A stretch of 64,000 nt of DNA from an uncultured Gammaproteobacteria bacterium (GTDB lineage Bacteria > Patescibacteriota > Patescibacteriia > Magasanikbacterales > UBA922): the NCBI GenBank assembly GCA_964447765.1, contig CAYUTO010000001.1, positions 121,125-185,124 of the forward strand, written 5' to 3'. A program made the position numbers and the translations under genes. Shown here in pieces: positions 29,606 through 51,076 of the stretch; the first letter of the stretch is position 1, and each line of letters opens with the position of its first letter. Below the pieces are notes generated by a model that did not search any database, was not told the origin of the DNA, and worked only from the letters and a program-made list of their open reading frames with translations.

Positions 29606-29607
29606 TA

Positions 29608-29705: not shown

Positions 29706-30296
29706 CTATAGATATTTTTGTAATTCTACTACAAGTTTTTCCCACTTTCTAAAGTATTCCTCGAGAGTCATTTCTTTTATACCATGCATTTGGTAAAGAA
29801 CATTAGTATCATCTTGATTACTATCAACATGAAATGTGTCAGGTTTTTCAATTCCTCCCAATTCAATATAGGTAAATTGTTTCTTTTCATCTACCTTTTC
29901 AGCTACTCTTTCACCAGCTCGAGGACAAAGATCATCTAAAATAAGTCTTATCTGTTTTGGTAAAAAAATATCAGAGCGTGTGTTAATATGATTGAAAAGC
30001 CCCCAGACACTTTGATCAAAAATGACTTTCTCATGTCTAATCATTGACAACTGTTCTGTATAAAAGTTTTCTCTATTTGCTATTATGTCGTTAATGTAAA
30101 TTTGATGCCATGATTTGCCTTTAGAATGAATTAAAAATCTTATTGTTTGAGTATATTTAAGTAAATCCTTTGCAAAGTTATACCTTTCTTTTCCACGTGT
30201 TTCTTTTTTCCATGAAAACAAAGCAAATCCAGCAATGATAACCATTACAAGTTGAAGTACTATATCAGTTATTTTTAAAATAATATCAGTTTCCAT
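29706..30296 (-). CDS. Small N-terminally membrane-anchored protein; putative partner of the PHP-ABC ATPase
   Basis: Directly downstream of 30378..33167 on the same strand. N-terminal TM helix. Confidence 0.4.
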   Translation of the reverse strand: METDIILKITDIVLQLVMVIIAGFALFSWKKETRGKERYNFAKDLLKYTQTIRFLIHSKGKSWHQIYINDIIANRENFYTEQLSMIRHEKVIFDQSVWGLFNHINTRSDIFLPKQIRLILDDLCPRAGERVAEKVDEKKQFTYIELGGIEKPDTFHVDSNQDDTNVLYQMHGIKEMTLEEYFRKWEKLVVELQKYL

Positions 30297-30377
30297 TGTA
30301 TATTTAGTGAAAAATATATTTATTTGAGCGGATTTACTCGGGCGACTGGGAGACGTTAGAGCTCATTTTATCAAAAA

Positions 30378-33167: not shown

Positions 33168-33176
33168 AGTATTCTA

Positions 33177-34667: not shown

Positions 34668-36979
34668 ACAATAATCAAACTTTGCCAGCCTTTCATTGCG
34701 TTTGTATAAGAGTATTCTTTGTTTGAGTTAATCTTCCAGCCATTTTCATCTTTGACGACAATTCCACCTACAAAGCCCTTCTTATTCTTTAGCCATTCTT
34801 GTAATGCTTCGGCTTTGTATTTTGTGTCATTTGATTCTGCTGTAAAACCAGCTTTGGTATCAACGATCCAAATCTTGTTTTTGGTTTTGATTATCCAGTC
34901 GGGATAAAATAGTTTTTCTTTGTTCTCATCAGGATTGTAGTATGAGATAGAAAAAAATTCACTACCAGAATCTCCATTTTTATACCACCACTCAATAGCA
35001 TTTTCTTTTTCTTCTAAAAATTTGATAAATCCTTTTTCATTATCGACAACTTCTTTGGAAATATAAAATGGTTCCAAAGCGGATTTCTTTACTTTCATCT
35101 CTTCGTAGTTATCTGTAAAGAAGAGAGACGCTCTAGGCACTTCAATAATTTCCGTTCTTTTTGAGCGAACGGATTTTTTGTTTACCTCTTGATCACGAAT
35201 AGGACGATATGAGAATAGTGCTTCGCCGATGATTGGTCTCAAAACACCACTTTCTCTCAACAGATCATTGAGAATAACTTTGTATGCGTGAGTTCGGTCG
35301 TCCCCAAGTATTGGAAGAAGCCACACATTAAGAGCTGTTTTGAGTTTTCCCCATGAACGTTCAGGGGCAAACTTTTTATCTTCATCTGTTTGTTTACTGA
35401 CAATGTTAAAACAAACCAAATTATAGAGTCTTTCAATATCATGTTGAGACATGTCTTGATCGTGACTATCACCCTCGGCGAGCAATTCTTTGGTAAAATT
35501 GTCATAATCATCAATCTCCACACCAACGATAATGCCGTTTGTCACTTGAGGTTTTAGTTCAAGACCTTTTGCGGACAGTTTCTTTTTTGCTTCGCTATCA
35601 TTATCTTTTAAAGAGAATGTCTTGTTTGCTATCTTTTTGAAAGTGGTTTGAAATGAATCACCAAGGTCATTATAGTCTGTACGGCTCATGAAGATGGATT
35701 CAATCTGAATTGGTTCAATACCTTCTTTGCGATAACTACCGTAAATAGCTGGTTTATTTTCTGATTTGTTCTTATCGTATTCACTAATAACCTCGTTTCT
35801 TTTGTAGTTTGTATAGAGATACCCAAGATTCAATTCAGGCTTACCGAAATGAGTGCCGTGAGGCATACGAAGAATACGACCAACCGTTTGAATAGCAAAG
35901 GTAGGATTCTTAATTTCACGGAACATCACAAGCACGCCTGCACGTGGACAATCCCACCCAGTAGCAACAGCTTGCTTGAACAAAAGAAATGAGATAGATG
36001 AATTATTTCTTTCTACATCTTCGAGGTTAATTTTATCTTCCGAAAGCCAAACGGCAATATCATTTTCTGAAACACCTTTTTTCTTGAGATAGTTTATGAC
36101 AATTTCTTGTTTGTTGATATTACTCGTTTCACTCGTTGCCTTGTCATCATTGGGGAGCTGTATCAACACAAGAGGATTTATCTCAATACCAAGTGCCTGA
36201 TAGTATGAGAGTAGTTCTTTTCTTTTTTGATAGGCAAGTTCAAGAAGAATTTCATCTTGATCCATTCCTTTGAATTGCTTTTGATTCAAGTCTTCTTCTG
36301 TTTGAAATATAATTTTTTCTTTAATCAAACCTTCTTTGACCACATCTTCACGTCTGACACGAACAAAACCAGCTATTTTATCTTCGAGATCACTTACCGT
36401 AGGCTCAAATTTAGGAGTAGCAGACGCACGGATAATTATCTTTGGCTTGATAAGACCATCAATAAGTTCTAGGGCTTTTTCCGTATCAGCACCGAGGTGT
36501 TCTTCGTCGATAATAACAACAATTTTTCTATTTTCTTCATGAGTCGATTCTATCATCCCATCAAAAGAAATATCCTGTTCGTTGTCTTTACGAATTTTGA
36601 GCACTTCTTTTGATTGTCCTTTGAGTTTTTCCCAGTTTATAAAAAACACGCTATTACGAGTCATGATTTTACGATTCAAATCATTGATATCCAAAAGCTC
36701 TAACTCCGAAGCACCCCCGTAGTATTGAAAGAGTTTGTTTTTACTTTGTTCAACAAGAGTGGGACCTTTTGACATCCATAAAAAAGCCACATCATTACCT
36801 ATAAAACGAGGGTCGGCAATAATATCTCGCAAAAATTGAGCAAGCATGACAGTTTTCCCTGATCCTGTCGGAGATTTGAATACTAAAGGAAGTTGATTAT
36901 TAGATGATTTCCAAAGGTCAAGAAATTGATCCTTTAGTTTTGCAATAGCAATTTCTTGAAAAGGTTTTAGTGGAAACAT
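34664..36979 (-). CDS. Type III restriction enzyme Res subunit (SF2 helicase plus nuclease)
   Basis: Walker A SPTGSGKT, DEEH box, helicase motif VI QTVGRILR. Translationally coupled to mod. Confidence 0.7.
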   Translation of the reverse strand: MFPLKPFQEIAIAKLKDQFLDLWKSSNNQLPLVFKSPTGSGKTVMLAQFLRDIIADPRFIGNDVAFLWMSKGPTLVEQSKNKLFQYYGGASELELLDINDLNRKIMTRNSVFFINWEKLKGQSKEVLKIRKDNEQDISFDGMIESTHEENRKIVVIIDEEHLGADTEKALELIDGLIKPKIIIRASATPKFEPTVSDLEDKIAGFVRVRREDVVKEGLIKEKIIFQTEEDLNQKQFKGMDQDEILLELAYQKRKELLSYYQALGIEINPLVLIQLPNDDKATSETSNINKQEIVINYLKKKGVSENDIAVWLSEDKINLEDVERNNSSISFLLFKQAVATGWDCPRAGVLVMFREIKNPTFAIQTVGRILRMPHGTHFGKPELNLGYLYTNYKRNEVISEYDKNKSENKPAIYGSYRKEGIEPIQIESIFMSRTDYNDLGDSFQTTFKKIANKTFSLKDNDSEAKKKLSAKGLELKPQVTNGIIVGVEIDDYDNFTKELLAEGDSHDQDMSQHDIERLYNLVCFNIVSKQTDEDKKFAPERSWGKLKTALNVWLLPILGDDRTHAYKVILNDLLRESGVLRPIIGEALFSYRPIRDQEVNKKSVRSKRTEIIEVPRASLFFTDNYEEMKVKKSALEPFYISKEVVDNEKGFIKFLEEKENAIEWWYKNGDSGSEFFSISYYNPDENKEKLFYPDWIIKTKNKIWIVDTKAGFTAESNDTKYKAEALQEWLKNKKGFVGGIVVKDENGWKINSNKEYSYTNAMKGWQSLIIV

Positions 36980-36981
36980 AA

Positions 36982-38736
36982 TTATAGACGGTTAATCTCT
37001 TTGTATACCTCAAGAATTGGTTCAGGGATATCTTCGACACGGACATTTGCTGAACTATATTCACTCTTATATTCATTTTTACCCCAGCTAAAAATATAGA
37101 GCACTGCTGGTTGTTTTTTCTTTTCTAACTTTTCTACCAAATCGTGCAATTTCTCTTTGTCTTCTTTAAAGTAGATAGCTGTGGATTTGCCGTGTCCTTC
37201 AAATATCTGCCACCACTCATTTTTTTCTGTCTCATTGAGAGTATTTTCACGTAGACCAATCATTTCTCCTGCTTGATATGTGAGTTTTACCTTTGCTTGG
37301 TCGGGGGTGTGATGAAGTTTTTCAATATCGACAAGATCAGTTTTGTAGTAACGAAGATTACCTCCGAGACCTTCTACTTTTTCTCCTTTTTTACTCTTAT
37401 ATCCTTTGATAACTTTGTTTAATCTGGTAAATGTTATATTTTCGCAAATACCGTTCTCATTATTGGTACAAAGAATAAAGTTACGATTACCGCCATCTAA
37501 ACTATTAAGCTCAAGGACAGAGTGTCCAGTTGTGCCTGATCCAGCAAAAAAATCTAATACCAATATATTTTTATCTTTGTTAGTTATATTCAACAAATGA
37601 CTAACAAGCTCTTTAGGTTTAGAAAAAGAAAAGTCTATGTCCATCTGTATTAAAACTTTTGAACCTAAGGAATTTGGTAAATCAATAAAAGTAAGAGGTT
37701 TGAGTCCTTTTTCTTGTCTTTCGTGAAGATAAATTTTTGTATATACATTCCACTTTGATTGCTTGCCGTTCTCGTCAATAAGCGGTGATGTTTTACTTTG
37801 TATAAAAACAACACGATCATCTTTTAGATTTCTCTCAAAGGTAGATGGAATCCATCTAAACATTTTATCTTTTTCAGGGGTAGTGACTTTTGATCCATCA
37901 GGGCATTCTATAAAATACCTCTGATTTGGTCGGGGATCTAGACTCGGCATGTACAATGAAACGATATTATATTTACCTCTTTTATCTTCGTATTTAAATA
38001 ACTTGAGATAACCATCATCAGTTTGTGCAGCCGCGTCATTAAACTCTCCTAGCTCATCAATATCCTTGGCATAACAAAGAATATAATCTGTCGACGGTGA
38101 AAAATATTTTCCTTTATTACTCGTCTCTTTTGACTTACGAACAATGTTTGCTAAAAAATTTTTTTCACCAAAAACACCATCACATAACAACTTAAGTTGA
38201 GCCATTTCATCATCACCGATACTGACAAAAAATACACCGCTCTTTTTAAGTAAATCTCTAGAAAGAAGCAGTCTTTTTTCAATAAAAGAAGTCCACTTGC
38301 TATGTCGAAAGGCATCATCCTTGTCCACGAATTTATCATTATAAGAAAAATCATTATTACCTGTATTATATGGAGGGTCGATATAGATAACATCAATTTT
38401 CCCTTTATGGGTATAATTCAAAACAGATAAAGCATGATAGTTATCTCCTTCGATCAAAATATTTTCCGTCTTTGTTTCATCAGTAATAACAACAGGTTCT
38501 ACTCCTTTCTGTTTTTCTTTTAAACGTAAAATAGGAACATTGCGTTTACAATCTTCCACAATTTGCTCTGGCTTCTCTTCCCAAACCAAACCATATTTTT
38601 TTTGCTTTTTTATTTTCCTCAATTCCTTTTCAAGATCTTCTATTTTTTTAGAAAGTATTTTTTCATTTGAATTCATAGCAAACTCCTTAATCCATATAAA
38701 ATATGATTGATTCCATTTTATACTTTTTTCAAGCAT
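36982..38736 (-). CDS. Type III R-M DNA adenine methyltransferase Mod
   Basis: DPPY motif IV in VIYIDPPYNTGNDF. AdoMet motif FFAGSGTTGHSV. Confidence 0.75.
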   Translation of the reverse strand: MLEKSIKWNQSYFIWIKEFAMNSNEKILSKKIEDLEKELRKIKKQKKYGLVWEEKPEQIVEDCKRNVPILRLKEKQKGVEPVVITDETKTENILIEGDNYHALSVLNYTHKGKIDVIYIDPPYNTGNNDFSYNDKFVDKDDAFRHSKWTSFIEKRLLLSRDLLKKSGVFFVSIGDDEMAQLKLLCDGVFGEKNFLANIVRKSKETSNKGKYFSPSTDYILCYAKDIDELGEFNDAAAQTDDGYLKLFKYEDKRGKYNIVSLYMPSLDPRPNQRYFIECPDGSKVTTPEKDKMFRWIPSTFERNLKDDRVVFIQSKTSPLIDENGKQSKWNVYTKIYLHERQEKGLKPLTFIDLPNSLGSKVLIQMDIDFSFSKPKELVSHLLNITNKDKNILVLDFFAGSGTTGHSVLELNSLDGGNRNFILCTNNENGICENITFTRLNKVIKGYKSKKGEKVEGLGGNLRYYKTDLVDIEKLHHTPDQAKVKLTYQAGEMIGLRENTLNETEKNEWWQIFEGHGKSTAIYFKEDKEKLHDLVEKLEKKKQPAVLYIFSWGKNEYKSEYSSANVRVEDIPEPILEVYKEINRL

Positions 38737-38793
38737 TTGTCCACACTTTCAGATATTTGTTCTTCGGGTTAAGTTCGGGTATACTGATCATAT

Positions 38794-39393
38794 ATGAACA
38801 GATTGACCAAACGACAAAAGGAAATATTCGACTACATCTGCACATATCTTGAAGAAAACGAGGTTTCCCCCTCGTTAGAGGAAATAAAAGAGAAGTTCGG
38901 TCTTTCCGCCCTCTCTACCGTTCATGAGCATATTACCGAGCTCGTAGACAAAGGGTATTTGCGCCGAGATGAGCGAAAAGAACGAGGGCTGTACTTGCCA
39001 GCAAAACGCCAGCAGTACATAGAAGTACCTCTCCTTGGGACGATTGCTTGCGGTGAACCACTGGAAGCAATTGAAACCCCCGATGAATTTATCAGAGTAG
39101 TCCGAGAAGAACCCTTGCGAGGCACGATATATGCCCTCAAAGCAAAGGGTGATTCAATGATACAAGAAGGTATTTTTGACGGTGATTTTATTATCGTCAA
39201 AAAGCAACAAACAGCAGAAAATGGCGATACCGTTGTCGCAATCATAGACGATAACGAGGCGACGCTTAAAAAATACTATCAAGAAAAGGATAGGATTCGA
39301 TTACAGCCAGCAAATCCGACGTTTAGCCCAACGTATAGACAAGAGGTAGAAATTCGAGGCGTTGTGGTGAAGATTATTCGGAATTTAAAATAA
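38794..39393 (+). CDS. lexA: LexA-like repressor (wHTH plus S24 peptidase)
   Basis: N-terminal LexA DNA-binding domain. A CG at the expected AG cleavage position. Ser/Lys dyad GDSM ... IIVKK. Confidence 0.7.
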   Translation: MNRLTKRQKEIFDYICTYLEENEVSPSLEEIKEKFGLSALSTVHEHITELVDKGYLRRDERKERGLYLPAKRQQYIEVPLLGTIACGEPLEAIETPDEFIRVVREEPLRGTIYALKAKGDSMIQEGIFDGDFIIVKKQQTAENGDTVVAIIDDNEATLKKYYQEKDRIRLQPANPTFSPTYRQEVEIRGVVVKIIRNLK

Positions 39394-39447
39394 ATATGAG
39401 CGATTATCTTTCGTATTCACTATTCGCTATTCAGTTTCTTAACCCAC

Positions 39448-40257
39448 ATGAAACTCTCCGCCGACACCATCAAGAAGCGCATGCTCGAGTTCACGCAACT
39501 CTTCTCGATAGAGCGGAATGTTTTTCAGCGTTTCGTGATTGTATATAAATACATCTACTTCCTCAACACCGACCCAGTAGCAAAAAGCGTTCTCCAAAAG
39601 ATATTCGACGAGACCTCCAAAGTCATGGGCGAACACAGCGAAGACTGCCTCGACGAGGATCAGTTCCTCGACGTCAAAGGACAAGCTATTTTTTCACGCC
39701 AATTTTGGATATATTATAGCAATCTTGAGATTATCTACGGCAAGATGAAAAAGCTCAAGAAGTGTGGCGTTGACGATAAACTCGAGTTTGAGACTCTGTG
39801 TCAGCTGTTCTCAAAGCCCTACTCTCGAGACATGTTGTCCCTTTCGTTCAAGGTAGTGAACAGCGAGATATTCAATCAACTCGATAAAGAATCGTTTTTT
39901 GAAGCGGAGAAAGAAGAAACATGGTTTGATGACAAATTGAGTGTCCTCTACGTACGGAGTAAGAAAGTGCTTATCAATAAGCAAGACAAGATCACGAACG
40001 CTCACAAGCTCCTGCACCATATTTTCATCACCAACAAGAATAATATCGAAGACGAGTTTTTCTACTCGGAAATAGCCGATGATGAGTTTGGGGATATGGA
40101 CTACACCAAAGATCAGGAAGCATGGAAACGCTATCACCGTGCGAGTGAGTATGTGAACGAGAAAATCTGCGAACAGACAGATAATGAAATACGAGATTTC
40201 CTTGTGTATAACACAGGTAAACAAGGTAGAGTGAAAATCAACAAAGCATACCTCTAG
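39448..40257 (+). CDS. Hypothetical protein (first prophage-side gene)
   Basis: Clean 269-aa ORF followed by a hairpin and T-run terminator near 40282-40305. Confidence 0.4.
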   Translation: MKLSADTIKKRMLEFTQLFSIERNVFQRFVIVYKYIYFLNTDPVAKSVLQKIFDETSKVMGEHSEDCLDEDQFLDVKGQAIFSRQFWIYYSNLEIIYGKMKKLKKCGVDDKLEFETLCQLFSKPYSRDMLSLSFKVVNSEIFNQLDKESFFEAEKEETWFDDKLSVLYVRSKKVLINKQDKITNAHKLLHHIFITNKNNIEDEFFYSEIADDEFGDMDYTKDQEAWKRYHRASEYVNEKICEQTDNEIRDFLVYNTGKQGRVKINKAYL

Positions 40258-40430
40258 TTCCGCAAAATTCTATACAAAACAGCTCTCAACCGAGGGCTTT
40301 TTTGTTATTCCCGTAAATCTTCTCCAAAACTTTTGGGAACAGTGAAATTCTATTATGCCTACATCGCAAAAACAAAGGTCGATTGCGAACACATGTAACT
40401 CATATTTTATGAAAGAAACAATACAAGTCT

Positions 40431-40694
40431 ATGTTCAAATTAACAGGAGTTCTCAAAAAAGAAGAAGTTCGGGAGTTCACACGCAAGGACGGGAGTCAGG
40501 GACAAAGCCGAACACTCTTCATCGAACCAGAAGGAAGCGTGTACCCAGTAAAAGTAAATGTGTCCGACATGGATCTCAAAGTCGGCAAACAGGGAGAAAA
40601 AGTAACAGTCGACGTGGCAATATTTCCGTACTTTATCGAGGGCGGTAAACGCAAACGAGCGTTCACGGATTACTACATCCCTAACAAGAAATAA
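40431..40694 (+). CDS. Filamentous-phage ssDNA-binding protein (g5p-like), putative
   Basis: 87 aa, beta-rich and basic. Sits directly upstream of the small hydrophobic and coat genes, as in the inovirus order gV-gVII-gIX-gVIII. Confidence 0.45.
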   Translation: MFKLTGVLKKEEVREFTRKDGSQGQSRTLFIEPEGSVYPVKVNVSDMDLKVGKQGEKVTVDVAIFPYFIEGGKRKRAFTDYYIPNKK

Positions 40695-40696
40695 GT

Positions 40697-40849
40697 ATGG
40701 ATTTCTTTACCGTAACAACCACCACCATGAGCTTGACCGACGGCGCATTGGATCTGATTAACTTTTTCAGCCAACTCTTTACCGTGTCGTTCGCGCTGGT
40801 ATTTGGTCTGCTTGCGGTGATCATCCTTTTACTCATCTTTAAAACATAG
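40697..40849 (+). CDS. Small hydrophobic protein (inovirus minor coat g7p/g9p-like), putative
   Basis: 50 aa with one TM helix. The ATG immediately follows the g5p-like stop. Confidence 0.35.
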   Translation: MDFFTVTTTTMSLTDGALDLINFFSQLFTVSFALVFGLLAVIILLLIFKT

Positions 40850-40852
40850 GCT

Positions 40853-40963
40853 ATGGCTGGTCTCATAAACAATCTATTCGAGGGATTCGGCCTAAGCCTT
40901 ATGTTTCCTCTCGTTCTATTCATAGTCGTCAGTGTCTTCTTGGCGATAACTTCGGGCAAATAG
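40853..40963 (+). CDS. Small hydrophobic protein (inovirus minor coat-like), putative
   Basis: 36 aa with a single TM helix, tightly packed with its neighbours. Confidence 0.3.
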   Translation: MAGLINNLFEGFGLSLMFPLVLFIVVSVFLAITSGK

Positions 40964-40964
40964 T

Positions 40965-41117
40965 ATGTGTTCCGCATATATCTTACTAAACAACTCGTGC
41001 TACGTAGATGATTTCCTCATGATAGGACAGGTCTACGCTAAAGCGATTGTTCTCGGTTTGGTACTTGGAACAGTGGTCGGCTTACTATTGTTATTCATAA
41101 GACACATAAAAGACTAA
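40965..41117 (+). CDS. Small hydrophobic protein, putative
   Basis: 50 aa with a TM helix. Its stop overlaps the coat gene ATG (taATG). Confidence 0.3.
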   Translation: MCSAYILLNNSCYVDDFLMIGQVYAKAIVLGLVLGTVVGLLLLFIRHIKD

Positions 41118-41392
41118 TGGCTATGACTGAGAAAATCAAAAGCCTTGTCCTTGGTACCAAAGCAAAAGTAACCGCATTCGGGCTCGCGCTCGCTGGTGGA
41201 CTTTTGGCTGGAACAAGTGCGTTCGCTGCCGTGGACGCTGATGTCGCCTCTACGACCGCAAGTGTGGTCGACACGATGAAAGAAAATGTGGTCGGTGTAA
41301 TTACCGCCAACATCTCAAATATCGTGATTGTAGGTGTGATCATCTTCTCCATCGGCTTCGTTTGGCGCCTTGCTCGTCGGTTCATGCGATAG
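41117..41392 (+). CDS. Inovirus major coat protein (g8p-like)
   Basis: Signal peptide. Acidic/amphipathic N-terminus, a hydrophobic helix IVIVGVIIFSIGFVW, and a basic C-terminus RLARRFMR. Confidence 0.6.
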   Translation: MAMTEKIKSLVLGTKAKVTAFGLALAGGLLAGTSAFAAVDADVASTTASVVDTMKENVVGVITANISNIVIVGVIIFSIGFVWRLARRFMR

Positions 41393-41473
41393 GCTTCGGC
41401 ACTGCGGGGGCTTGCTCTCAATAAGCAAAAGCCCCCGCAACGGTGCCTCATGACATACAGATAAAATATCCAT

Positions 41474-43183
41474 ATGAATATAGCATTAACAAAACACAAA
41501 GCGACGCTCATGATTGCGATAGTGATAGGCATAGGAGTGTCGTTTTTCATTTCAGGACAAGCAAAAGCGGATAGCCCTGTGGGTGACGTCGTGGAGTTTT
41601 CACCGTCCTCAAATTGGTATACCTGGTTTATTCGTACCAGCAATGAAACAGGACATGGACAATCATTCATCACACAAGCCGACACCGAAGCAATCAGCAC
41701 CGTTGCATTCAAACTTTGCCGTCTCGGTACGATTACCAAACCAAAAACATTAACACTTTGTTCGTCCGCAACAAATGGCTGGTACGGCGGATGTGCAAGC
41801 CCACTTGCAACAAAACAATTCACCGCCGACGAGCTTAATGAAATGATTAACTACGACGCAAGTTGCAATTCAAATGCGGAGGGTGGAGCAAACGACGGAA
41901 CATATTATCACTGGTCATATTTTACCTTTGATGAGCCCGTCACGGTAAGTGGAAACACCTCGTACTTTGTACTTCTAAACAGTGCCTCAAGTGCAGACAA
42001 TGAATCGGGTTCACTGCTTCGTACCATGTACAACAATGAAAACTATCTTGGTACCAGTGAGAACTACCCGAACGGACAAGAGTATTACTATAAAGGAGCG
42101 ACACGCTATACCTACGGTGCATCAACAGATATTTTCTTCAAAGTATTTAGTGCCGACCCGATAACTGTTCCGTTTGAAATTACACATCCCTTGCAAGATC
42201 AAGAAATTATCAATGACACATGGGTCACGGTATCAGGAACATGCCCCTACGTCGGAGAAAATAGAATCGGATTTACCGATGACTGTCTCGGGTTTGAAGA
42301 AATTGAATACACGGCGGCGTGTACCGAAGATCACACATTCTCGGCACAATTTTATCACACGAGTTTATCCGACAGAGTGATTGCGAGAGAAGTAGATAGT
42401 ATATCGGGCGATTGCGTTGATTACGATAATTTAATGGATTTCGTAACAGTCGACGGTATTGAGTTTGTCGACGGCTATCCCGAAGATTGGTATTTCAATT
42501 TCGGGATATATGACGATTATGATATTACGATTAAAAGCCCCGTGTTTGATGTCGCACTCACGCTTCCACGAGGCTCTACCTCAAAAGAATTTACATTCTC
42601 ATTCACATATCCCGAAGAAGCACTCGAAGACCTCACATTCGTGATTGCACAGTACGACCACGAGGGAAACTTGATAACGGATAATTTTCACACACGAACA
42701 CTCGAAAGCATGGCAGACACGAGCGATTATCAGGTAACGCTCTCCGCAACCACGACAGCATATCACTATGTTGTACAACTCATAGAAGACGCAACACTCA
42801 AGCGACAGTACCCATTTGGCATCTTTGTTTCCGACCTCGACTTTGTAGCAAATCCCGATGAAACAAATTATTTCTTTCCTCGCATTGTGACGGAACTACG
42901 AAAAAAGATTGTCTTCAATTACTACTTTGCGTTTCATGACGGCTTTTACAATATGTTCAACGGACAATATTCAAGCCCATCTTCAAACGCACTCGACATT
43001 ACATTCAAAAGTATGTCAGGAGACGGACAATACAATCTCGATGTAAAAGTATTTTCAGCAAGCGACCCGAGAGTAAAATCATTCACCAGTGCCATGCGTC
43101 CCTATATCGTCGCACTCCTGTGGCTATCGTTCGCCTTGTATGTGGTCTTTCGCATAACGCATCTATTTAGTGATAACGAATAG
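41474..43183 (+). CDS. Phage adsorption/minor coat protein (g3p-like), putative
   Basis: Signal peptide, large ectodomain, C-terminal TM anchor. Sits in the gIII position. Confidence 0.45.
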   Translation: MNIALTKHKATLMIAIVIGIGVSFFISGQAKADSPVGDVVEFSPSSNWYTWFIRTSNETGHGQSFITQADTEAISTVAFKLCRLGTITKPKTLTLCSSATNGWYGGCASPLATKQFTADELNEMINYDASCNSNAEGGANDGTYYHWSYFTFDEPVTVSGNTSYFVLLNSASSADNESGSLLRTMYNNENYLGTSENYPNGQEYYYKGATRYTYGASTDIFFKVFSADPITVPFEITHPLQDQEIINDTWVTVSGTCPYVGENRIGFTDDCLGFEEIEYTAACTEDHTFSAQFYHTSLSDRVIAREVDSISGDCVDYDNLMDFVTVDGIEFVDGYPEDWYFNFGIYDDYDITIKSPVFDVALTLPRGSTSKEFTFSFTYPEEALEDLTFVIAQYDHEGNLITDNFHTRTLESMADTSDYQVTLSATTTAYHYVVQLIEDATLKRQYPFGIFVSDLDFVANPDETNYFFPRIVTELRKKIVFNYYFAFHDGFYNMFNGQYSSPSSNALDITFKSMSGDGQYNLDVKVFSASDPRVKSFTSAMRPYIVALLWLSFALYVVFRITHLFSDNE

Positions 43184-43186
43184 CGT

Positions 43187-43432
43187 ATGTTTACTTTCAT
43201 TGAATCAATTCTTGTAAAAATTATCTCACTCTTACCCGACGCTGATCCGAATAATTCAGTTATTACGGCCGTCACAAACGCATTTGCCACTATGGCACCG
43301 ACATTCTCGCAAATTGACCTTGTCTTTCCGATATTCGTATTGTTCAAAGTATTACTCCTCGTGATGTTCGTGGAAATGACAATCTTCTTGTTTACGTTCA
43401 TTTTGCAGATTGCAACATTCTTTAAACCATAA
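43187..43432 (+). CDS. Small hydrophobic protein (g6p-like), putative
   Basis: 81 aa with two hydrophobic helices, between the g3p-like gene and the Zot-like gene. Confidence 0.4.
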   Translation: MFTFIESILVKIISLLPDADPNNSVITAVTNAFATMAPTFSQIDLVFPIFVLFKVLLLVMFVEMTIFLFTFILQIATFFKP

Positions 43433-43437
43433 CCTCT

Positions 43438-44154
43438 ATGATTACCATTGTCACAGGAAAACCAGGAGCCGGAAAAACACTCTTCATGACCTACAAAGCA
43501 CTTGAAATGTTTCTCAAAGGCTACGATGTGTATGCAAATTGGAAACTTGATTTCACAAGATACGTTCTCCGAAAACAGATTGATCTCAAAACCGTCGGGC
43601 GTGTCTACTTTTGGTCTGAAATACCTGAACTCTTACACATTAAAGGCGGACAGATATTTATTGACGAAGCACAAGGATACTTTGATAGCCGTGAGTGGCT
43701 CGACATGCCACCGTCGGCAAAACAAAAATTCTCCGCTCACAGACATGATGTAAAAACAGATGAAGACGGAAACATTATTCCACTCGATATTTGGGCGGGT
43801 GTGCAACACACAGGAAATATCGACAAACGTATTCGAGACTTGGGACAGCATTATTTGGAGGTACGAAATATCTTTCGTCTTGTATTCATGGCGTCATACT
43901 TCGAACTTCACGACCTCAAAGACGACATTGTAAAACGTCGAGCAGTAAAACGAACATTCTTTGTGATGAACAAAATGAAAGCAGATTGCTACAACACACA
44001 CGAAGCCGTGAACTTTATTGAGTACCCCGAGTTTCCATACCACCGAGAATATCCAAACACACTCTCAAACGACAATACAGGGCTTATTCCCGACACACCT
44101 GACACTCCACCATATTCGAAACAGCAACGCAAAAAAGGGAGTGGATCCTTTTAG
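43438..44154 (+). CDS. Zot/pI-family filamentous phage assembly ATPase
   Basis: N-terminal P-loop IVTGKPGAGKTLFMTYKA. Length and motif match the Zot N-terminal domain. Confidence 0.7.
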   Translation: MITIVTGKPGAGKTLFMTYKALEMFLKGYDVYANWKLDFTRYVLRKQIDLKTVGRVYFWSEIPELLHIKGGQIFIDEAQGYFDSREWLDMPPSAKQKFSAHRHDVKTDEDGNIIPLDIWAGVQHTGNIDKRIRDLGQHYLEVRNIFRLVFMASYFELHDLKDDIVKRRAVKRTFFVMNKMKADCYNTHEAVNFIEYPEFPYHREYPNTLSNDNTGLIPDTPDTPPYSKQQRKKGSGSF

Positions 44155-44492
44155 GAACCACTCCCGACCTGTTCTACTTGTTTGATGTAGAACAGGTGTA
44201 CCCGTTTCGGGTACTTTCGGACGGTCGTACCGTCCTTATCTTTCTTCTCAATGATAATGAAAGACTGAAGAGCTTTTTCACCCTTCTTTACTTGGTAGCC
44301 CATCTCGAGCCACCGATTATACGTCAAACAATTACTTTTTGGATCGTAATTGTTCGCGTCCTCTTCGCCGAAGCGAGCGAGAATCTGCTTGCGTACAAGG
44401 TCGGAAGTAATTTCCGAACCTTTCCATGTGGAAACGATTGCGTTTTCCATAGAAATAAAAAATACAGCCGAATTGATAACATCCGAAGACAA
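44151..44492 (-). CDS. Hypothetical protein (prophage-encoded, opposite strand)
   Basis: Clean 113-aa ORF convergent with the Zot-like gene. Confidence 0.35.
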   Translation of the reverse strand: MSSDVINSAVFFISMENAIVSTWKGSEITSDLVRKQILARFGEEDANNYDPKSNCLTYNRWLEMGYQVKKGEKALQSFIIIEKKDKDGTTVRKYPKRVHLFYIKQVEQVGSGS

Positions 44493-44635
44493 GGCTGTTT
44501 ATTGCCGTATCGGACAAGACAGAAACAAGCGTCTGATAGCTTGCTTTAGTCAAGGTGGAGACTTGTTACTACCTTTACCAAAGAAAAGCTGACGCTATAC
44601 TGCCTCGCCCTGATACGGAATATGAGCATTGATTT

Positions 44636-44721
44636 ACGGTATCCCGTACCGAATGGATACCGTCCCTCTGACAAACAATCTTTTTTTGGCGGCTGCCCGA
44701 CGACAAAAAAAGATTGTTTGT
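44636..44721 (+). promoter_or_regulatory. Hairpin cluster upstream of Rep; candidate phage origin / packaging signal
   Basis: Perfect 17-bp inverted repeat acaaacaatcttttttt / aaaaaaagattgtttgt (44671-44721) and cggtatcc/ggataccg (44638-44662), in the Rep 5' intergenic region. Confidence 0.4.
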
Positions 44722-44759
44722 GAGCGGTTTGTTGGTACGAACGAAATCGCTCTCTTAAC

Positions 44760-45569
44760 TTGATTATATCCACACATCTAACGAAAACTATGGCACATTC
44801 CTACACACTCAAAGTAGTGGTGTCGGGAAAGCAGGTTGAAGTGTACAAGTACACGAAAGAAGTTTGGCGGGATTTTGAATCAAAACCACAAAGTGACAAA
44901 CCTCACAAAGAGCCGAAGCAACTAAACATGTTTGAACAAGAAGAGTTAAGAAAAAAGAAAGTGCAGTATTCCATAAACAGAACCAAAACCGAGATACGCC
45001 GTCTCGTAAACTCGAACCCCCACCTCAACAAATTTATGACCCTGACTTTCGCCGACAACGTAACCGACCTCAAAACTGCGAACTACTTGTTCAATCAGTT
45101 TGTTAAACGTATCTCATACCGATACAAGAATTTTGAATACTTCGCTGTCCCTGAATTTCAAAAGCGTGGAGCCGTCCACTACCACGTGCTTTGTAACCTC
45201 CCATACGTTGAAATGGACGCACTTGAATACACATGGGGACATGGAATGGTAAATATCCGCAAAGTCGACGAAGTAAACAATCTCGGGGCGTATATGAGCA
45301 AGTACCTCGGCAAAGAATTATTCTCTGGTCGTATGTTTGGTAAGAAAAAATTCTTTCGCTCACAAACACTCAAGGAACCTGTTGAACTTATCTCATGGTG
45401 GGCGATGAAATTTATTGATAAGTTTCTTTCGCTTCTCAAGCCCGTGTTTGAAAAGAAGTTTGAAAGTGAATATATCGGCGAGGTGGAATACACGGCGTAT
45501 ACGCTTGATCGTATTGTATTCAAGGACGGCATACTCAATCCTGCCGTGTTAATGGGAACAGTATGGTAA
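44760..45569 (+). CDS. HUH rolling-circle replication initiator (Rep)
   Basis: Motif 2 HUH in AVHYHVLCN. Motif 3 with two Tyr, GAYMSKYLGKE. Confidence 0.65.
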   Translation: MIISTHLTKTMAHSYTLKVVVSGKQVEVYKYTKEVWRDFESKPQSDKPHKEPKQLNMFEQEELRKKKVQYSINRTKTEIRRLVNSNPHLNKFMTLTFADNVTDLKTANYLFNQFVKRISYRYKNFEYFAVPEFQKRGAVHYHVLCNLPYVEMDALEYTWGHGMVNIRKVDEVNNLGAYMSKYLGKELFSGRMFGKKKFFRSQTLKEPVELISWWAMKFIDKFLSLLKPVFEKKFESEYIGEVEYTAYTLDRIVFKDGILNPAVLMGTVW

Positions 45570-45727
45570 GCGAAGCACGTATAAAAGAGCTACAACTTAT
45601 CATAAAGGAAGAATACGGCGAGGATATAAGCTACGAAGAAACAAGCATTTTAGCGAATATACTTGTTCGATATTTTAGCAATCTTGAGAAGGCATATTTA
45701 TCTTGCAAAAAGAAAGAAATGTGGTAA
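45563..45727 (+). CDS. Small protein, paralog of 45871..46059
   Basis: 54 aa. Shares an EEYGE...S.EE pattern with the next small ORF. Confidence 0.3.
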   Translation: MVSEARIKELQLIIKEEYGEDISYEETSILANILVRYFSNLEKAYLSCKKKEMW

Positions 45728-45870
45728 AATATCCGTGCTACCCAATATACATTTTAGACAAAAGCTTTTTATATTTGTCCCCAGTAAGGGGCGGTTCTTG
45801 CCGATAAATATAGGCTTTTGTCTTGTTTATTGGGTAGCCAAGACCGTCCCTTTTTGTTTACAAAAAATAT

Positions 45871-46059
45871 ATGCAATTTACAAAAGAACAAGTTGAATCA
45901 TTCAAGGCATTATATAAAAAAGAATTTGGCGAGGAATTAACAGATGAGCAAGCTCAAATAGAGGCTAGTGATTTAATAGACATGCTCAAAGTCGTGTGTA
46001 AACCCGCAAAACGATCCATCTATGAAAAATTCGCAGCAGAAAAAAGAGCACTTAAATAG
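45871..46059 (+). CDS. Small protein, paralog of 45563..45727
   Basis: 62 aa with a KEFGEELTDEQAQIEASDLIDML segment. Overlaps the recombinase start. Confidence 0.35.
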   Translation: MQFTKEQVESFKALYKKEFGEELTDEQAQIEASDLIDMLKVVCKPAKRSIYEKFAAEKRALK

Positions 46060-47662
46060 TGGTACCAGACAATCTATTATTTTTTGTCGTGTATCCAGTA
46101 AAGAACAAGAAGAAACTGGATACTCTTTGCCTGCTCAAGAAAAATATTTGAAAGATTATTGTGGCAGAAATTCAATTCGCATTGAAAAAATATTCAAGAT
46201 ATCCGAAAGTGCGAGTGGCGAAAAGCAACGAAGTAAGTTTGCTGAAATGATGGGATTTGTCGAAAAGCAAGATATTAAGATTATTGTATGTGAAAAAGCC
46301 GACCGTCTCACGAGAAACTTCAAAGACATGGTAGCGATAGATCAATGGCTTGAGCATGATGAAAAACGAGAAGTCCATTTGGTAAAGGATAGTCTTATTA
46401 TGCACCGTGGATCAAAATCCCAAGAAAAACTTAATTGGGGTATTCGTATTTTGTTTGCAAAAAACTATATCGACAATTTAAGCGAGGAAGTAAAGAAAGG
46501 TCAGAAAGCAAAAGTTGAAGAAGGGTGGTTGCCAGTACGCCCACCACTAGGATATGCCACGATTGGCGAAAAGGGACACAAAACGCACGTTATCGATACC
46601 ACAGAGGCTCCACATATCAAAAAGATGTTTGAACTGTATTCTACGGGCAATTACTCGCTCAAAAAACTATCTGATGATTTGTACAATAATGGCTTTCGTT
46701 CGAAAAGCGGGAAAAAGGTCGGTAAAAGCACACTGCACCGACTTTTGGGCGATCCATTCTATTATGGACGCTTCCGCTGGAAAGGTAAGGAATATGCTGG
46801 CAAGCACGAGCCTATCATCACGAAAGACGTATATAACAAAGTACAGGATATTATGGTACGACCAATAAAGTCTCCAAGATACAGAAAACATTTACCTCTA
46901 TTTAAAGGTAAAATAAAATGTGGCGAGTGTGGTGGCACAATTACATGGGAACAGCAAAAAGGCTCATGGTATGGACATTGCAACAAGTACAAGCCTTGTT
47001 CACAAAAGAAATACATAAAACAAGAAGACGTAGAGGAAATGCTTGTACCCCTTATTATTAAAATTTCACCCAAGACCGAGCGTGTATTGGATTGGCTGGC
47101 AGATTCGCTCAAAGATACGCATGAGGATCAAAAAGAATACTCCGAAACAAAAAATACAGACCTAAATATCGAACTTGAAAAAATAAACAAACGGCTAAGC
47201 ACAATCTATGATGATAAGGTGGACGGCGTAATTTCCATTGATTTTTACAATCAGAAATTTGAAGAATACGTAGAAAAGAAAGAAAAAATACTTGAACAAA
47301 TAAATAAGCTCGAAGACAGTACAAATGACTTTTACAAGAAAGCTGTCGCAATCCACGAACTTGCATATCGAGCACGCCATCTACTTTTAAGCCCAAATAC
47401 ACAGGTAGAAGTAAAGCGAGATATATTAAGTGATATTTTTTCGAACTTTGAACTAAAAGACGGTAAGATAAGCGAAAAATATACTCCTGAATTTGAATTT
47501 TTGGAAAAATGGATGCCGAAGCTCAATGAAACTTTCGAACTGCAAGAAAATGGCTCAACAAAAGAAAAAACAGGCTCTTGCGAACCTGCTCGTTCTGTAT
47601 TGCTCGGGGACAGGGATTCGAACCCCGATAAAAGGCTTCAAAGGCCTCTGTCCTACCATTAG
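46022..47662 (+). CDS. Large serine recombinase (phage integrase type)
   Basis: Resolvase catalytic domain IIFCRVSSKEQ (Ser nucleophile). Recombinase domain, zinc-ribbon CGECGG...C, C-terminal coiled coil. The 3' end reads into tRNA-Gln. Confidence 0.75.
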   Translation: MKNSQQKKEHLNSGTRQSIIFCRVSSKEQEETGYSLPAQEKYLKDYCGRNSIRIEKIFKISESASGEKQRSKFAEMMGFVEKQDIKIIVCEKADRLTRNFKDMVAIDQWLEHDEKREVHLVKDSLIMHRGSKSQEKLNWGIRILFAKNYIDNLSEEVKKGQKAKVEEGWLPVRPPLGYATIGEKGHKTHVIDTTEAPHIKKMFELYSTGNYSLKKLSDDLYNNGFRSKSGKKVGKSTLHRLLGDPFYYGRFRWKGKEYAGKHEPIITKDVYNKVQDIMVRPIKSPRYRKHLPLFKGKIKCGECGGTITWEQQKGSWYGHCNKYKPCSQKKYIKQEDVEEMLVPLIIKISPKTERVLDWLADSLKDTHEDQKEYSETKNTDLNIELEKINKRLSTIYDDKVDGVISIDFYNQKFEEYVEKKEKILEQINKLEDSTNDFYKKAVAIHELAYRARHLLLSPNTQVEVKRDILSDIFSNFELKDGKISEKYTPEFEFLEKWMPKLNETFELQENGSTKEKTGSCEPARSVLLGDRDSNPDKRLQRPLSYH

Positions 47663-47673
47663 ACGATCCCCGA
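47603..47673 (-). tRNA. tRNA-Gln (anticodon UUG)
   Basis: Manual fold: acceptor TCGGGGA/TCCCCGA, anticodon stem-loop GAGGC-CTTTGAA-GCCTT, T-arm CGGGG-TTCGAAT-CCCTG, discriminator G. CCA is not encoded. Confidence 0.8.
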
Positions 47674-49591: not shown

Positions 49592-50248
49592 TCACACGCT
49601 CGCTTGAGCTTCCTGCTCCTTCAGGAACGCTGCTCCGTGACCCACACTCGTGTTGATCGGAACACCTTCCTTGCAGGGCCCATACTCCTTGCACTCCTCC
49701 CACGTCCAGCTCTCGGTGGGGAGCTCGAGCAGGCAGGTGAGGCTGGGAGCCTGGAGACGCTCTGCATCCACGCCACCACGATTCACGACCGCGGTGACAG
49801 CGAACACGTAGCCTTTGCACTCTTTTACGAGCGCGACCGTGTTTGCGACCGACTCTCCAGTCGACAGTACATCTTCGACGACGAGGACATTCTTGCCCTC
49901 CACCTGCGAAGGATCTTCGAAGTAGAAGAACTTCAGCTCGCTCAGATGCTTCTTCGCGGGGATGCCGAGAATCTCTCTTCCTTTGAGGATCGAGAGTTCG
50001 TGTGCGACAGCGATTGCGAGCTTGGTACCTCCAGTCTCAGGCCCGGTCACCACGTCGATCGGTGCGTCTACATACTCCCGAGCAATCATGCTCGTGAAGA
50101 CCTGTAGCGCCCCTTCGGACTTGAGAACTGCCTTGATGTTGATGTAGACCCTGGTGTGCCTACGTGACGCCATGATCATATGGCTCCCGGTGATGATTGC
50201 CCCGCTCTCTTCGAGCAGCTGGGACACTACTATCTCGTCACTTGTCAT
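49592..50248 (-). CDS. pyrE: Type I phosphoribosyltransferase, orotate phosphoribosyltransferase-like
   Basis: PRPP-binding motif VLVVEDVLSTGES. Adjacent to pyrF. Confidence 0.55.
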   Translation of the reverse strand: MTSDEIVVSQLLEESGAIITGSHMIMASRRHTRVYINIKAVLKSEGALQVFTSMIAREYVDAPIDVVTGPETGGTKLAIAVAHELSILKGREILGIPAKKHLSELKFFYFEDPSQVEGKNVLVVEDVLSTGESVANTVALVKECKGYVFAVTAVVNRGGVDAERLQAPSLTCLLELPTESWTWEECKEYGPCKEGVPINTSVGHGAAFLKEQEAQASV

Positions 50249-50266
50249 GAGTACTCCTTAGTTGTT

Positions 50267-51076
50267 CTAGACCGTTCTAGCCATGCGGAGTTGATCCGCG
50301 TACCACCGAGCACGCTCGCCAGGCGACTCAGCGAAGATGATGTCTCTTGCCACATTGAAGATGGCATTCTTGCCAGCTACCTTCACCGTTGCACTGAGAT
50401 CACCTTCTTGCGTACCGAGCCCTGGCACGAGCTTGAAGATTCCATCTCCCAAGACGTTACGCGCGAGCTGAATGTCATCGGGGAAGGTAGCACCAAGGAC
50501 CAGTCCGCAGTTATGATTCTCATTCCACTCGGTCTCCACTGCTTTCGCAATGTGCAACCACAGCGGAAGACCGCTCGGCTGAACCAGATCCTGAAACTCT
50601 CCAGCACCAGGATTTGAAGTCTTTGCCAGGAAGATGCAGCCCTTATTCTTGAGGTCGAGGAAGGGTTGCATGGCTTCACGCCCGAGATACGGGTGCAACG
50701 TCACTGCATCCGCTCTCATGGTATCGAAAAGTCCCCAGATGTAGGCGAGGTTGGTGTTGCCGATGTCACCCCGTTTTGCATCGACGATCACCGGCACCTC
50801 GGGTACGGTCGCGTGGATATGAGCGATGACGCGCTTCAGCGCATCGAAGCCTTCGCCACCATAAGCCTCGAAGAATGCGATGTTCGGCTTGAATGTTGCT
50901 ACGTACTCGGACGTCTCATCGACGATCGAGCAGCAGAATCGAACGAGTGCCGCCATGATACCGAGTCCTTGAATGGACTTGGGCATCTTGTCGAGTACCG
51001 GATCCAGGCCTACGCAGAGCGAACGTCCTGTAGCCAACCGTGCATGTTGCAGGTCTTTGAAAACTCTTTTTTTCAT
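50267..51076 (-). CDS. pyrF: Orotidine 5'-phosphate decarboxylase, type 2
   Basis: LCVGLDP motif and ~270-aa length typical of the type-2 (actinobacterial-type) PyrF. Confidence 0.7.
   Translation of the reverse strand: MKKRVFKDLQHARLATGRSLCVGLDPVLDKMPKSIQGLGIMAALVRFCCSIVDETSEYVATFKPNIAFFEAYGGEGFDALKRVIAHIHATVPEVPVIVDAKRGDIGNTNLAYIWGLFDTMRADAVTLHPYLGREAMQPFLDLKNKGCIFLAKTSNPGAGEFQDLVQPSGLPLWLHIAKAVETEWNENHNCGLVLGATFPDDIQLARNVLGDGIFKLVPGLGTQEGDLSATVKVAGKNAIFNVARDIIFAESPGERARWYADQLRMARTV

Follow-up and report, generated by a model that had tools for sequence, protein, structure and literature searches.

The DNA beside a tRNA-Gln gene in a candidate phyla radiation (CPR) genome raises the question of whether a filamentous phage is integrated there and, if so, how far it extends. 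We analysed a 64,000-nucleotide (nt) stretch of contig CAYUTO010000001.1 (GenBank assembly GCA_964447765.1, positions 121,125 to 185,124 of the forward strand), hereafter called the window, to which all coordinates refer. A sequence-only reading of the window had described an integrated inovirus-type prophage at 39440–47673 (8.2 kb), with a gene order like that of the Ff phages (M13/fd/f1), an HUH rolling-circle replication initiator (Rep), no secretin gene, and a large serine recombinase beside tRNA-Gln. Our analysis bears out each of these features, and all the open reading frames (ORFs) named at the time are present at their given coordinates. The left end was misplaced: the element starts at 29608, not 39440, and the earlier span left out 9.8 kb in which a LexA-type repressor gene, two divergently oriented promoters, and a defence cargo of ~9 kb are located. 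We conclude, at a probability of roughly 85%, that the element at 29608–47605 (17,998 bp) is an integrated, intact-looking inovirus-type (filamentous) prophage in a Candidatus Magasanikbacteria (CPR) chromosome, and that it represents a temperate, single-stranded DNA (ssDNA), rolling-circle phage of 18.0 kb. Roughly half of the element consists of restriction-modification (R-M) and other defence cargo. Profile searches were carried out using Pfam, PHROG, and PADLOC, tRNA genes were located using ARAGORN and Rfam, membrane features were assessed using a hydropathy script, and protein models were obtained with AlphaFold2 (AF2).

A CPR-like host, suspected earlier, was confirmed as Candidatus Magasanikbacteria. 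The host is assigned to the CPR because a scan of GTDB species genomes with the neighbouring host protein FtsX returned 34 loci, those with informative names being Candidatus Magasanikbacteria, Parcubacteria, or Patescibacteria, because the FtsE-FtsX-tRNA-Gln gene order is kept across the host clade, and because NCBI also gives Magasanikbacteria names to sequences that match the prophage proteins exactly or nearly so. An exact-protein look-up of FtsX itself returned no record. Several metagenome-assembled genome records (L003, L005, L007–L009, and others) are titled 'uncultured Gammaproteobacteria bacterium' and have Magasanikbacteria-type FtsE-FtsX-tRNA synteny with up to 98% protein identity; these titles appear to be mislabelled.

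Integration at the 3′ end of tRNA-Gln

The following features define the two ends of the element and the enzyme encoded beside the right end.

29570–29607, minus strand: host flank at attL (B′ arm), the original terminator hairpin of tRNA-Gln before integration
29608–29636, minus strand: left end of the element, core GCTC (29608–29611) and P arm GCTCCCATACTGGGACGAGTTTCGAACTG
45563–46059, plus strand: orf54 and orf62, encoding small, acidic/helical proteins of 54 and 62 amino acids (aa); orf62 overlaps the recombinase start
46022–47662, plus strand: large serine recombinase (integrase), 546 aa (PF00239, PF07508, PF13408; phrog_95)
47568–47591, minus strand: phage-borne terminator hairpin (P′ arm), now 3′ of tRNA-Gln; a homologous hairpin accompanies the recombinase to other tRNAs
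47602–47605, minus strand: attR core, GCTC on the plus strand, with GAGC being the tRNA 3′ end
47602–47673, minus strand: host tRNA-Gln(UUG), intact (ARAGORN; Rfam 63.5 bits)

The closest genome, L003 (~87% nucleotide identity in the flanks), contains the tRNA-Gln gene and lacks the prophage, and L009 likewise lacks the element. The sequence-only reading had proposed mapping attL and attR against an insertion-free relative. An attB rebuilt from the left arm of attR and the right arm of attL fits the natural empty site of L003, with 0/35 nt mismatched on the tRNA side and 1/39 on the terminator side; the 3′ 35 nt of the window tRNA-Gln are identical to those of the L003 tRNA-Gln, and the host flank at attL differs at one of 39 bases from the sequence directly 3′ of tRNA-Gln in L003. 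The comparison shows that the own terminator of tRNA-Gln was moved 18 kb away to attL, and that a phage-borne hairpin took its place. Assignment of this hairpin to host DNA, given that it is shared by L009, was dropped, since the same hairpin goes with the recombinase to other tRNAs. It had also been considered that the block might consist of conserved core genes without a tRNA boundary; the element is instead missing from L003, and related elements elsewhere have varying tRNA boundaries.

The core shared by attL and attR is only 4 nt long (GAGC), which is the expected footprint of a serine recombinase. No longer direct repeat and no displaced tRNA 3′ fragment was found at the left end, a result explained by the short core, which lies at the extreme 3′ end of the tRNA. 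The crossover is placed at the last bases of the tRNA (GAGC) because near-identical phages at three tRNAs diverge there: the window, L055, and L058 part precisely past ...GTATTGCTC (window 47605), and the JGI contig L054 stops at that very base. Logan contig L133 (18,083 nt), an independent assembly covering the element, starts exactly 30 nt outside attL, an overhang equal to k−1 if the Logan assembly k is 31, as we presume. Assembly graphs branch exactly at the att cores. The right end of L133 lies 55 nt past attR and is not accounted for by the att junction. At the left end of the element, the P arm GCTCCCATACTGGGACGAGTTTCGAACTG resembles an antisense tRNA 3′ end, and comparable left arms were found in L081 and L072. 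The attP junction deduced from these ends would carry ...CGTCCCAGTATGGGAGCAATACAGAACGAGCAGG... / ...AACAGTTCGAAACTCGTCCCAGTATGGGAGCAATACAGAACGAGCAGGTTCGC..., and the attB junction ...GGTTCGAATCCCTGTCCCCGAGCTAATAAAATAATACGAC.... Neither an inverted partner of the P′ arm nor empty sites fitting the hosts of L071 and L081 were found in searches for them.

The recombinase matched PF00239 (Resolvase, 5e-20), PF07508 (Recombinase, 5e-17), PF13408 (Zn_ribbon_recom, 3e-8), and the phrog_95 integrases (6.9e-79), and an RVSS motif lies at residue 23, fitting a catalytic domain with a serine nucleophile. The enzyme had been described as abutting a tRNA; its gene does adjoin tRNA-Gln, and the relationship is closer than abutting, with the crossover lying within the last bases of the tRNA and the final ~19 codons (47606–47662) being antisense tRNA-Gln. 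The protein tail consequently depends on the integration site, reading ...GDRDSNPDKRLQRPLSYH in the window and ...PDLDSNQGPTG at tRNA-Asn. The recombinases of L055 and L058 are 96–97% identical to that of the window, the one in L055 differing at 19/526 positions, mostly conservatively. The window, L058, and L055 contain essentially the same phage at tRNA-Gln(UUG), tRNA-Gln(CUG), and tRNA-Asn, respectively, with L055 at 93% nucleotide identity. The comparison shows what is, by its sequence, predicted to be essentially one enzyme using all three tRNA genes.

Scans with the Zot protein described below, covering IMG/VR and metagenome assemblies, retrieved 17 IMG/VR contigs and ~64 metagenome loci with 72–99% Zot identity, giving ~80 syntenic relatives; the 17 IMG/VR contigs have 73–81% Zot identity and full synteny. 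A scan of IMG/VR with the window recombinase alone found no close relative. The family contains at least three recombinase classes, and the tRNAs beside them are Gln(UUG/CUG), Asn, Trp, Glu, and Ser. In every locus with a tRNA found beside the recombinase, the 3′ end of the recombinase gene passes antisense through an A-run and hairpin and, 12–13 nt further on, enters the 3′ end of that tRNA.

Other traces of mobile elements are present at this locus, which varies among relatives from ~16.7 kb to the tRNA. In L009, positions 11086–11165, directly 3′ of tRNA-Gln, contain a phage-type hairpin and ~45 codons resembling a recombinase C-terminus, and look like the scar of a lost related element. 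In L004 (3011–7386) and L005 (8886–13261), a different element without inovirus genes starts at the same tRNA-Gln 3′ end; its first ~140 nt are identical in two hosts whose tRNA anticodon stems differ, and its large serine recombinase, encoded ~3.4 kb from the tRNA, is 29% identical to that of the window. Immediately outside attL of the window, 25817–29209 encodes a 1130-aa protein with helix-turn-helix (HTH, Xre-type) and tetratricopeptide repeat domains, which gave weak matches to defence-associated HTH regulators.

Phage genes and the proposed life cycle

The genes for replication, DNA binding, and assembly lie between the regulatory genes described further below and the recombinase.

40431–40694, plus strand: predicted g5p-like OB-fold ssDNA-binding protein, 87 aa, basic (family profile and AF2 model)
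40697–41117, plus strand: three single-transmembrane (TM) proteins of 50, 36, and 50 aa in the position of g7/g9-type minor coat proteins, conserved in the family, no profile matches
41117–41392, plus strand: major-coat-like protein, 91 aa, with signal peptide, acidic N-terminus, TM helix, and basic tail
41474–43183, plus strand: g3p-like adsorption/minor coat protein, 569 aa (topology)
43187–43432, plus strand: g6p-like hydrophobic membrane protein, 81 aa (size and topology)
43438–44154, plus strand: Zot/pI-type morphogenesis ATPase, ATPase domain only (PF05707, 30.4 bits, cut-off 20.3; phrog_197, 6.6e-17)
44151–44492, minus strand: predicted ArdC-N-like ssDNA-binding (anti-restriction-type) protein (PF08401, 27.3 bits, cut-off 22.6; phrog_7245)
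44665–44727, plus strand: origin-like hairpin upstream of Rep, with conserved loop motif YTGCCCGA
44760–45569, plus strand: HUH rolling-circle replication initiator, Rep (PF23343, 1.4e-20, 73.8 bits; phrog_3419, 1.3e-32); the gene caller places the start at 44790

The order in the family is LexA, orf269, the g5-like gene, three small TM genes, the coat gene, the g3-like gene, the g6-like gene, Zot, the ArdC-N-like gene (reverse), Rep, one or two small ORFs, and the serine recombinase. A profile check of the coat, Zot, and Rep proteins had been proposed with the earlier reading; Zot and Rep matched above cut-offs, whereas the coat profile gave nothing significant against PDB and Pfam.

Zot contains the motifs GKPGAGKT at residue 7 and IFIDEA at residue 73, and also matches phrog_1675, which contains protein I of M13 (7.3e-8). 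Each of its 11 matches among GenBank phages is the record of an inovirus or of an uncultured ssDNA virus, and the function, where annotated, is zot, assembly, or morphogenesis. In the closest of them, Thermus phage OH3 and uncultured Inoviridae, as in the window element, a g6-type minor coat gene precedes the homologous pI/zot ATPase domain; they differ in that identity is only 24–31% over 58–79% of Zot, and the other genes have no match. The ArdC-N-like gene, lying between Zot and Rep on the opposite strand, is conserved in the family.

Rep belongs to the ORF2/G2P family, has the motifs HYHVL at 140 and YMSKY at 178, and shares 30–36% identity with the Rep proteins of uncultured ssDNA phages and Ralstonia inoviruses, the figure for the latter being 30%. 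The hairpin upstream, whose loop in the window is CTGCCCGA, keeps its position in the family at 35–95 nt upstream of the Rep gene. Compensatory changes occur in 12/13 stem pairs, the observed scores were reached by 0/500 shuffles, and slid controls scored far lower. By its sequence and placement the hairpin looks like a rolling-circle origin, with the loop YTGCCCGA as the candidate nick site.

The 87-aa protein is read as an OB-fold ssDNA-binding protein that would be functionally g5p-like. Its family profile matches archaeal RPA OB domains (E 0.008), and its all-beta AF2 model (predicted local distance difference test score, pLDDT, 92.7) has as its top PDB folds the Ff gene V protein, RPA, and the Pf3 ssDNA-binding protein, with probabilities of 0.93–1.0. 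By its features, the coat-like protein resembles an inovirus major coat protein: it has an AFA|AV cleavage motif, a mature form of 53 aa beginning AVDADV..., a TM segment at 57–87, and the tail RLARRFMR, in a sequence strongly conserved in 12 relatives. The 569-aa protein has an N-terminal signal/TM segment at 8–32 and a C-terminal TM segment at 540–565; its N-terminal half is variable and its anchored C-terminal half conserved, many relatives aligning only from ~215–235 onward.

The element resembles the Ff phages in encoding a predicted ssDNA-binding protein, two or three tiny TM proteins, a major coat protein, a large adsorption protein, a small hydrophobic protein, and Zot/pI, in having an HUH Rep with an origin hairpin, and in the design of its coat protein, with signal peptide, acidic N-terminus, TM helix, and basic tail. 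By contrast with the Ff phages, it has no secretin (gIV), its Rep gene lies downstream of the assembly genes instead of first, its pI has no membrane segment, sequence homology to Ff is limited to Zot and Rep, and it is temperate, with its own integrase and repressor and 9 kb of cargo.

These features suggest the following cycle. In integration, the step whose outcome the att comparisons show, the phage-encoded large serine recombinase joined attP to the last bases (GAGC) of tRNA-Gln, leaving the tRNA intact. Lysogeny would be controlled by a LexA-type self-cleaving repressor at back-to-back promoters, the rightward one driving the repressor gene and orf269. The leftward promoter, its position conserved in the family, would drive an exchangeable defence cassette that would guard the lysogen and favour retention of the prophage. 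Excision would require a directionality factor, for which orf54 and orf62, neither of which gave a profile match, are candidates. Rep would then nick the hairpin loop upstream of its own gene and start rolling-circle replication, the OB-fold g5p-like protein may coat the ssDNA, and the small TM proteins, coat, g3-like and g6-like proteins, and Zot would extrude filaments through a single membrane without a secretin.

Defence cargo and alternative readings

The left half of the element contains a minus-strand cassette, a divergent regulatory region, and the LexA-orf269 unit.

29706–30296, minus strand: cargo ORF, 196 aa, no Pfam or PADLOC match
30378–33167, minus strand: cargo AAA_21-type ATPase, 929 aa, resembling the Ppl defence protein (PADLOC Ppl, 1.7e-16; Pfam AAA_21)
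33177–34667, minus strand: cargo DUF2779/Cas4-like nuclease-domain protein (PF11074, 1.1e-36; weak Cas4 match)
34664–36979, minus strand: cargo Type III restriction enzyme (Res, ResIII helicase; PADLOC REase_III, 2.5e-18; PF04851)
36982–38676, minus strand: cargo Type III DNA methyltransferase (Mod; PADLOC MTase_III, 6.4e-92; PF01555)
38743–38715, minus strand: predicted outward (leftward) promoter TGGACA-17-TAAAAT facing the cargo operon, the top promoter-like site of the region (10/12)
38757–38785, plus strand: putative repressor promoter/operator, TTGTTC, then TTCGG-N7-TTCGG, then TATACT, ending 8 nt before the ATG
38794–39393, plus strand: LexA-type (S24 peptidase) repressor (C-terminal S24, PF00717, 1e-27; N-terminal winged helix, PF01726, 5.1e-17)
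39448–40257, plus strand: orf269, family-specific, with 142 homologues, all unnamed, in CPR bins
40281–40298, plus strand: terminator-like hairpin that closes the LexA-orf269 unit, splitting the regulatory unit from the structural genes

The Mod and Res genes are adjacent and co-oriented, fitting a predicted Type III R-M system, and the likely start of Mod is Met21 of the listed ORF 36982–38736. The repressor, which has the motifs ACGEP at 85 (Cys-Gly where the Ala-Gly cleavage site usually stands) and GDSM at 119, is predicted from its domains and motifs to be of the LexA/CI-type self-cleaving S24 class. Its gene, 63–81% identical among relatives, lies next to orf269 on the left irrespective of the target tRNA, and is therefore regarded as carried by the phage; it is absent from a minority of members, and orf269 occurs in all members checked. 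The AF2 model of orf269 (pLDDT 78) gave no significant PDB sequence or fold match, and a resemblance to ZapD (E 0.12, TM-score 0.26) was dismissed.

The TGGACA/TAGACA-17-TAnnAT form of the outward promoter occurs in 17/20 family loci, and some site scoring at least 9/12 in 19/20, all of these sites lying 43–64 nt from the LexA ATG. The promoter coincides with the motifs TTTGTCCACA and ATTTTATAC, at the left limit of family-wide homology. The TTCGG-N7-TTCGG block upstream of LexA is conserved in all family members, and we infer that it is the repressor promoter/operator. On the other side of the promoter pair, the first or second ORF to the left of LexA, on the opposite strand, encodes a DNA methylase, restriction enzyme, or abortive infection (Abi) protein in 15 of 18 other loci, and a sixteenth has a MazG-like gene in the slot. 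The slot genes include EcoRI-type, C5, N6/N4, Type III Mod, Eco57I/MmeI-like, NgoPII, and Abi_2 types, and two relatives without LexA have R-M or methylase genes in the same place. The slot measures 4.9–9.1 kb where measurable, and beyond the cargo of L081 and L072 lie junctions of the same design, a host hairpin and a tRNA-like arm. Because slot genes recur, the outward promoter is conserved, L081 and L072 have such junctions, and neither a second recombinase nor an internal att-like site was found in the cargo region (29.6–38.7 kb), we conclude that the cargo belongs to the element and fills a variable slot.

In two relatives another insertion was observed. Between orf269 and the g5-like gene of L038 (2677–5046), and identically in L063, lies an insert with three ORFs, one reverse transcriptase-like (334 aa), one small and Avd-like (89 aa), and one of 153 aa; judged by eye from the translations, it looks like a diversity-generating retroelement cassette inside an inovirus.

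Several findings weigh against reading the whole 18.0 kb as one intact prophage, and they are considered here together with the alternatives on which they bear. The G+C content (GC) of the cargo, 0.28–0.37, is lower than the ~0.42 of the phage core, its identity to the sister copy L054 is 78–89% compared with 93% for the core (it is likewise more diverged than the core in L055), and homology with L054 breaks at 38714; across the family, homology stops ~80–95 nt upstream of LexA. The cargo could therefore be a recent or separately evolving acquisition. Taken further, the same observations would describe a tandem pair, in which an inovirus of ~8.9 kb (~38714–47605) stands beside a separate, non-viral defence island (29608–38713) that uses the same tRNA site but is neither replicated nor packaged together with the phage. 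We consider this unlikely. The region at 29.6–38.7 kb contains no recombinase, and nothing resembling an att site or a tRNA was seen at 38.7 kb; the tRNA-like P arm and the displaced host terminator are found at 29608, not at 38714. Moreover, methylase/R-M cassettes occupy the same slot facing the conserved promoter in 16/18 relatives at five kinds of tRNA, and the same Type III R-M system goes with the phage beside tRNA-Asn in L055. The lower GC and sister-copy identity of the cargo also fit frequent cassette exchange. A left end at ~38714, the limit of family-wide homology, was dropped in view of the displaced host terminator and P arm at 29570–29636 and the recurrent cargo, and interpretation of the R-M flank shared with L055 as an assembly chimera was dropped for the same reasons.

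Other adverse findings concern mobility and assembly. Circular contigs with the same genes, a search suggested with the sequence-only reading, were not found: terminal-repeat tests, exact-protein look-ups, and an IMG/VR scan with the attP 17-mer revealed no circular or episomal contigs of the family, and no attP junction was present in the collections searched, the sole 17-mer match in IMG/VR being an unrelated chance match. The dyad symmetry of the deduced attP is modest, 38/2000 shuffles scoring equally high, and in short-read metagenome contigs the left and right flanks can be mis-paired across a 9–18-kb repeat. Zot has neither a TM segment nor the canonical C-terminal part of pI; the missing membrane part might come from the 81-aa membrane protein whose gene directly precedes that of Zot. 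A defective or domesticated inovirus remnant, no longer excising or making particles and kept for its R-M/defence genes, would account for the unrecovered circular form, the Zot without a membrane segment, and the lack of an identified directionality factor, and decay does occur, as indicated by the scar that a related element left at this tRNA in L009. This explanation seems to us slightly less probable still than the tandem pair. The core ORFs of the window element are all intact and are conserved across ~80 loci, and a Zot without a TM segment is the family norm. Near-identical copies at three tRNA genes in different samples require recent recombinase-mediated movement, and the branching of assembly graphs exactly at the att cores also speaks against a remnant.

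The protein evidence has weaknesses of its own. The fold matches of the g5-like protein fall below significance (E ~0.07, TM-scores of 0.39–0.47, below 0.5), and searches of Pfam, PHROG, and PDB linked none of the coat, g3-like, g6-like, and small TM proteins to known inovirus families, so their assignment rests on size, topology, and gene order; structural proteins without detectable homology are common among divergent inoviruses. All 12 coat-like proteins gave weak matches to TrbC/VirB2 pilins (best E 3.4e-5, below the gathering score), a resemblance that probably reflects shared topology. These pilin matches and the missing structural homology would also fit an element that is not viral, either an integrative rolling-circle plasmid or a mobilisable island, in which the 'coat' would be a pilin of the VirB2/TrbC type and the P-loop protein would not be an ATPase for phage assembly. 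This reading is very improbable given that profile searches found no VirB4, VirD4, relaxase, or other conjugation genes in the element, that the ATPase scores above the Pfam cut-off for Zot and matches only inovirus zot/pI genes among GenBank phages, that gene order, sizes, and topologies follow the Ff scheme, and that Rep is of the ORF2/G2P family.

Beyond the prophage itself, the family can be read jointly as a CPR-wide inovirus lineage combining multi-target recombinases, a promoter-equipped defence slot, and a reduced pI/Zot, a synthesis whose chances we put as even. According to it, the recombinases would recognise a generic tRNA 3′ end (T-loop and GAGC) and swap the tRNA terminator for a phage-borne one; an outward promoter at the genome end would drive an exchangeable 5–9 kb cassette, so that up to half of the genome would be defence cargo; and pI/Zot would have lost its membrane and secretin-contact part, implying a different extrusion machinery in single-membrane CPR cells.

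Relation to known systems and neighbouring loci

Each feature of the element has a precedent in print: there are published accounts of inoviruses in CPR bacteria, of a filamentous phage (phiRSM) that a serine recombinase integrates at the 3′ end of a tRNA, and of defence hotspots in inoviruses. The sequence-only reading had called the virus-host pairing rarely documented and tRNA integration by a serine recombinase atypical for inoviruses, and both statements went too far. A global survey in 2019 (Roux et al.; PMC6813254) extended inovirus hosts to the CPR, with genomes of 5–20 kb, and counts serine recombinases, DNA methylases, and toxin-antitoxin genes among inovirus functions; close relatives of the window element are already in IMG/VR. 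The Ralstonia phages phiRSM1 and phiRSM3 integrate at the 3′ end of tRNA-Ser(UCG) by means of a small resolvase/invertase-type serine recombinase, with an identical 13-nt core (PMC3816273). They share with the window element a filamentous phage carrying its own serine recombinase, the tRNA 3′ end as target, the reverse orientation, and a repressor gene nearby (PMC3816273). The window enzyme differs: it is a large serine recombinase of 546 aa, contains Recombinase and zinc-ribbon domains, and has a core of only 4 nt, and the element brings its own tRNA terminator and uses several different tRNAs. Integration is therefore like that of phiRSM in manner and is not a phiRSM-type module.

Hypervariable defence regions of Vibrio inoviruses were described in 2025 (PMC12715192). 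In the CTX-I inoviruses, these regions (pHVRs) occupy a slot between zot and xafT averaging 1.9 kb, and integration proceeds via host XerCD at dif (PMC12715192). Both systems have a fixed inovirus slot between oppositely transcribed genes holding varied anti-phage systems, including R-M and Abi. By contrast, the slot of the window family lies between attP and the repressor, measures 4.9–9.1 kb, contains mostly methylases and R-M genes, and faces a conserved outward promoter. In the literature searched, we found no account of the att sites, tRNA range, repressor, or cargo slot of this lineage. A large serine recombinase that uses the 3′ ends of several tRNAs with a core of 4 nt and brings its own terminator, a promoter-equipped 5–9 kb R-M slot, a Zot without a TM segment, and a LexA-type repressor thus appear to be undescribed for this lineage in that literature.

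CPR/Patescibacteria have almost no experimentally tractable phages. The locus comes with precisely placed att sites, a naturally occurring empty site, a predicted origin, the repressor and its operator region, and ~80 relatives, parts that could serve a search for excision or particles in samples or the building of a CPR genetic tool. For genome integration work, large serine recombinases able to act on the 3′ ends of several tRNAs could be of use. The cargo slot suggests that filamentous phages spread R-M systems among CPR bacteria, extending the Vibrio pattern. Automated provirus calls cut such elements at the repressor and the recombinase and miss half: the IMG/VR copies run from the LexA or orf269 gene to the stop codon of the recombinase, leaving off cargo and junctions.

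Two further loci in the window were noted. A carotenoid-type biosynthesis cluster in this CPR genome at 16713–21674 (minus strand) encodes a UbiA prenyltransferase, a polyprenyl synthetase, a phytoene/squalene synthase, an FAD desaturase-like amine oxidase, and a Caroten_synth protein; it has no DNA-level match in the fetched L003 and L009 loci, which align on either side. To the right of the tRNA, at 49592–51076, genes for a phosphoribosyltransferase (pyrE-like) and an orotidine monophosphate decarboxylase have a GC of 0.46–0.55, compared with ~0.40 in the rest of the window, and may represent a horizontally acquired segment.

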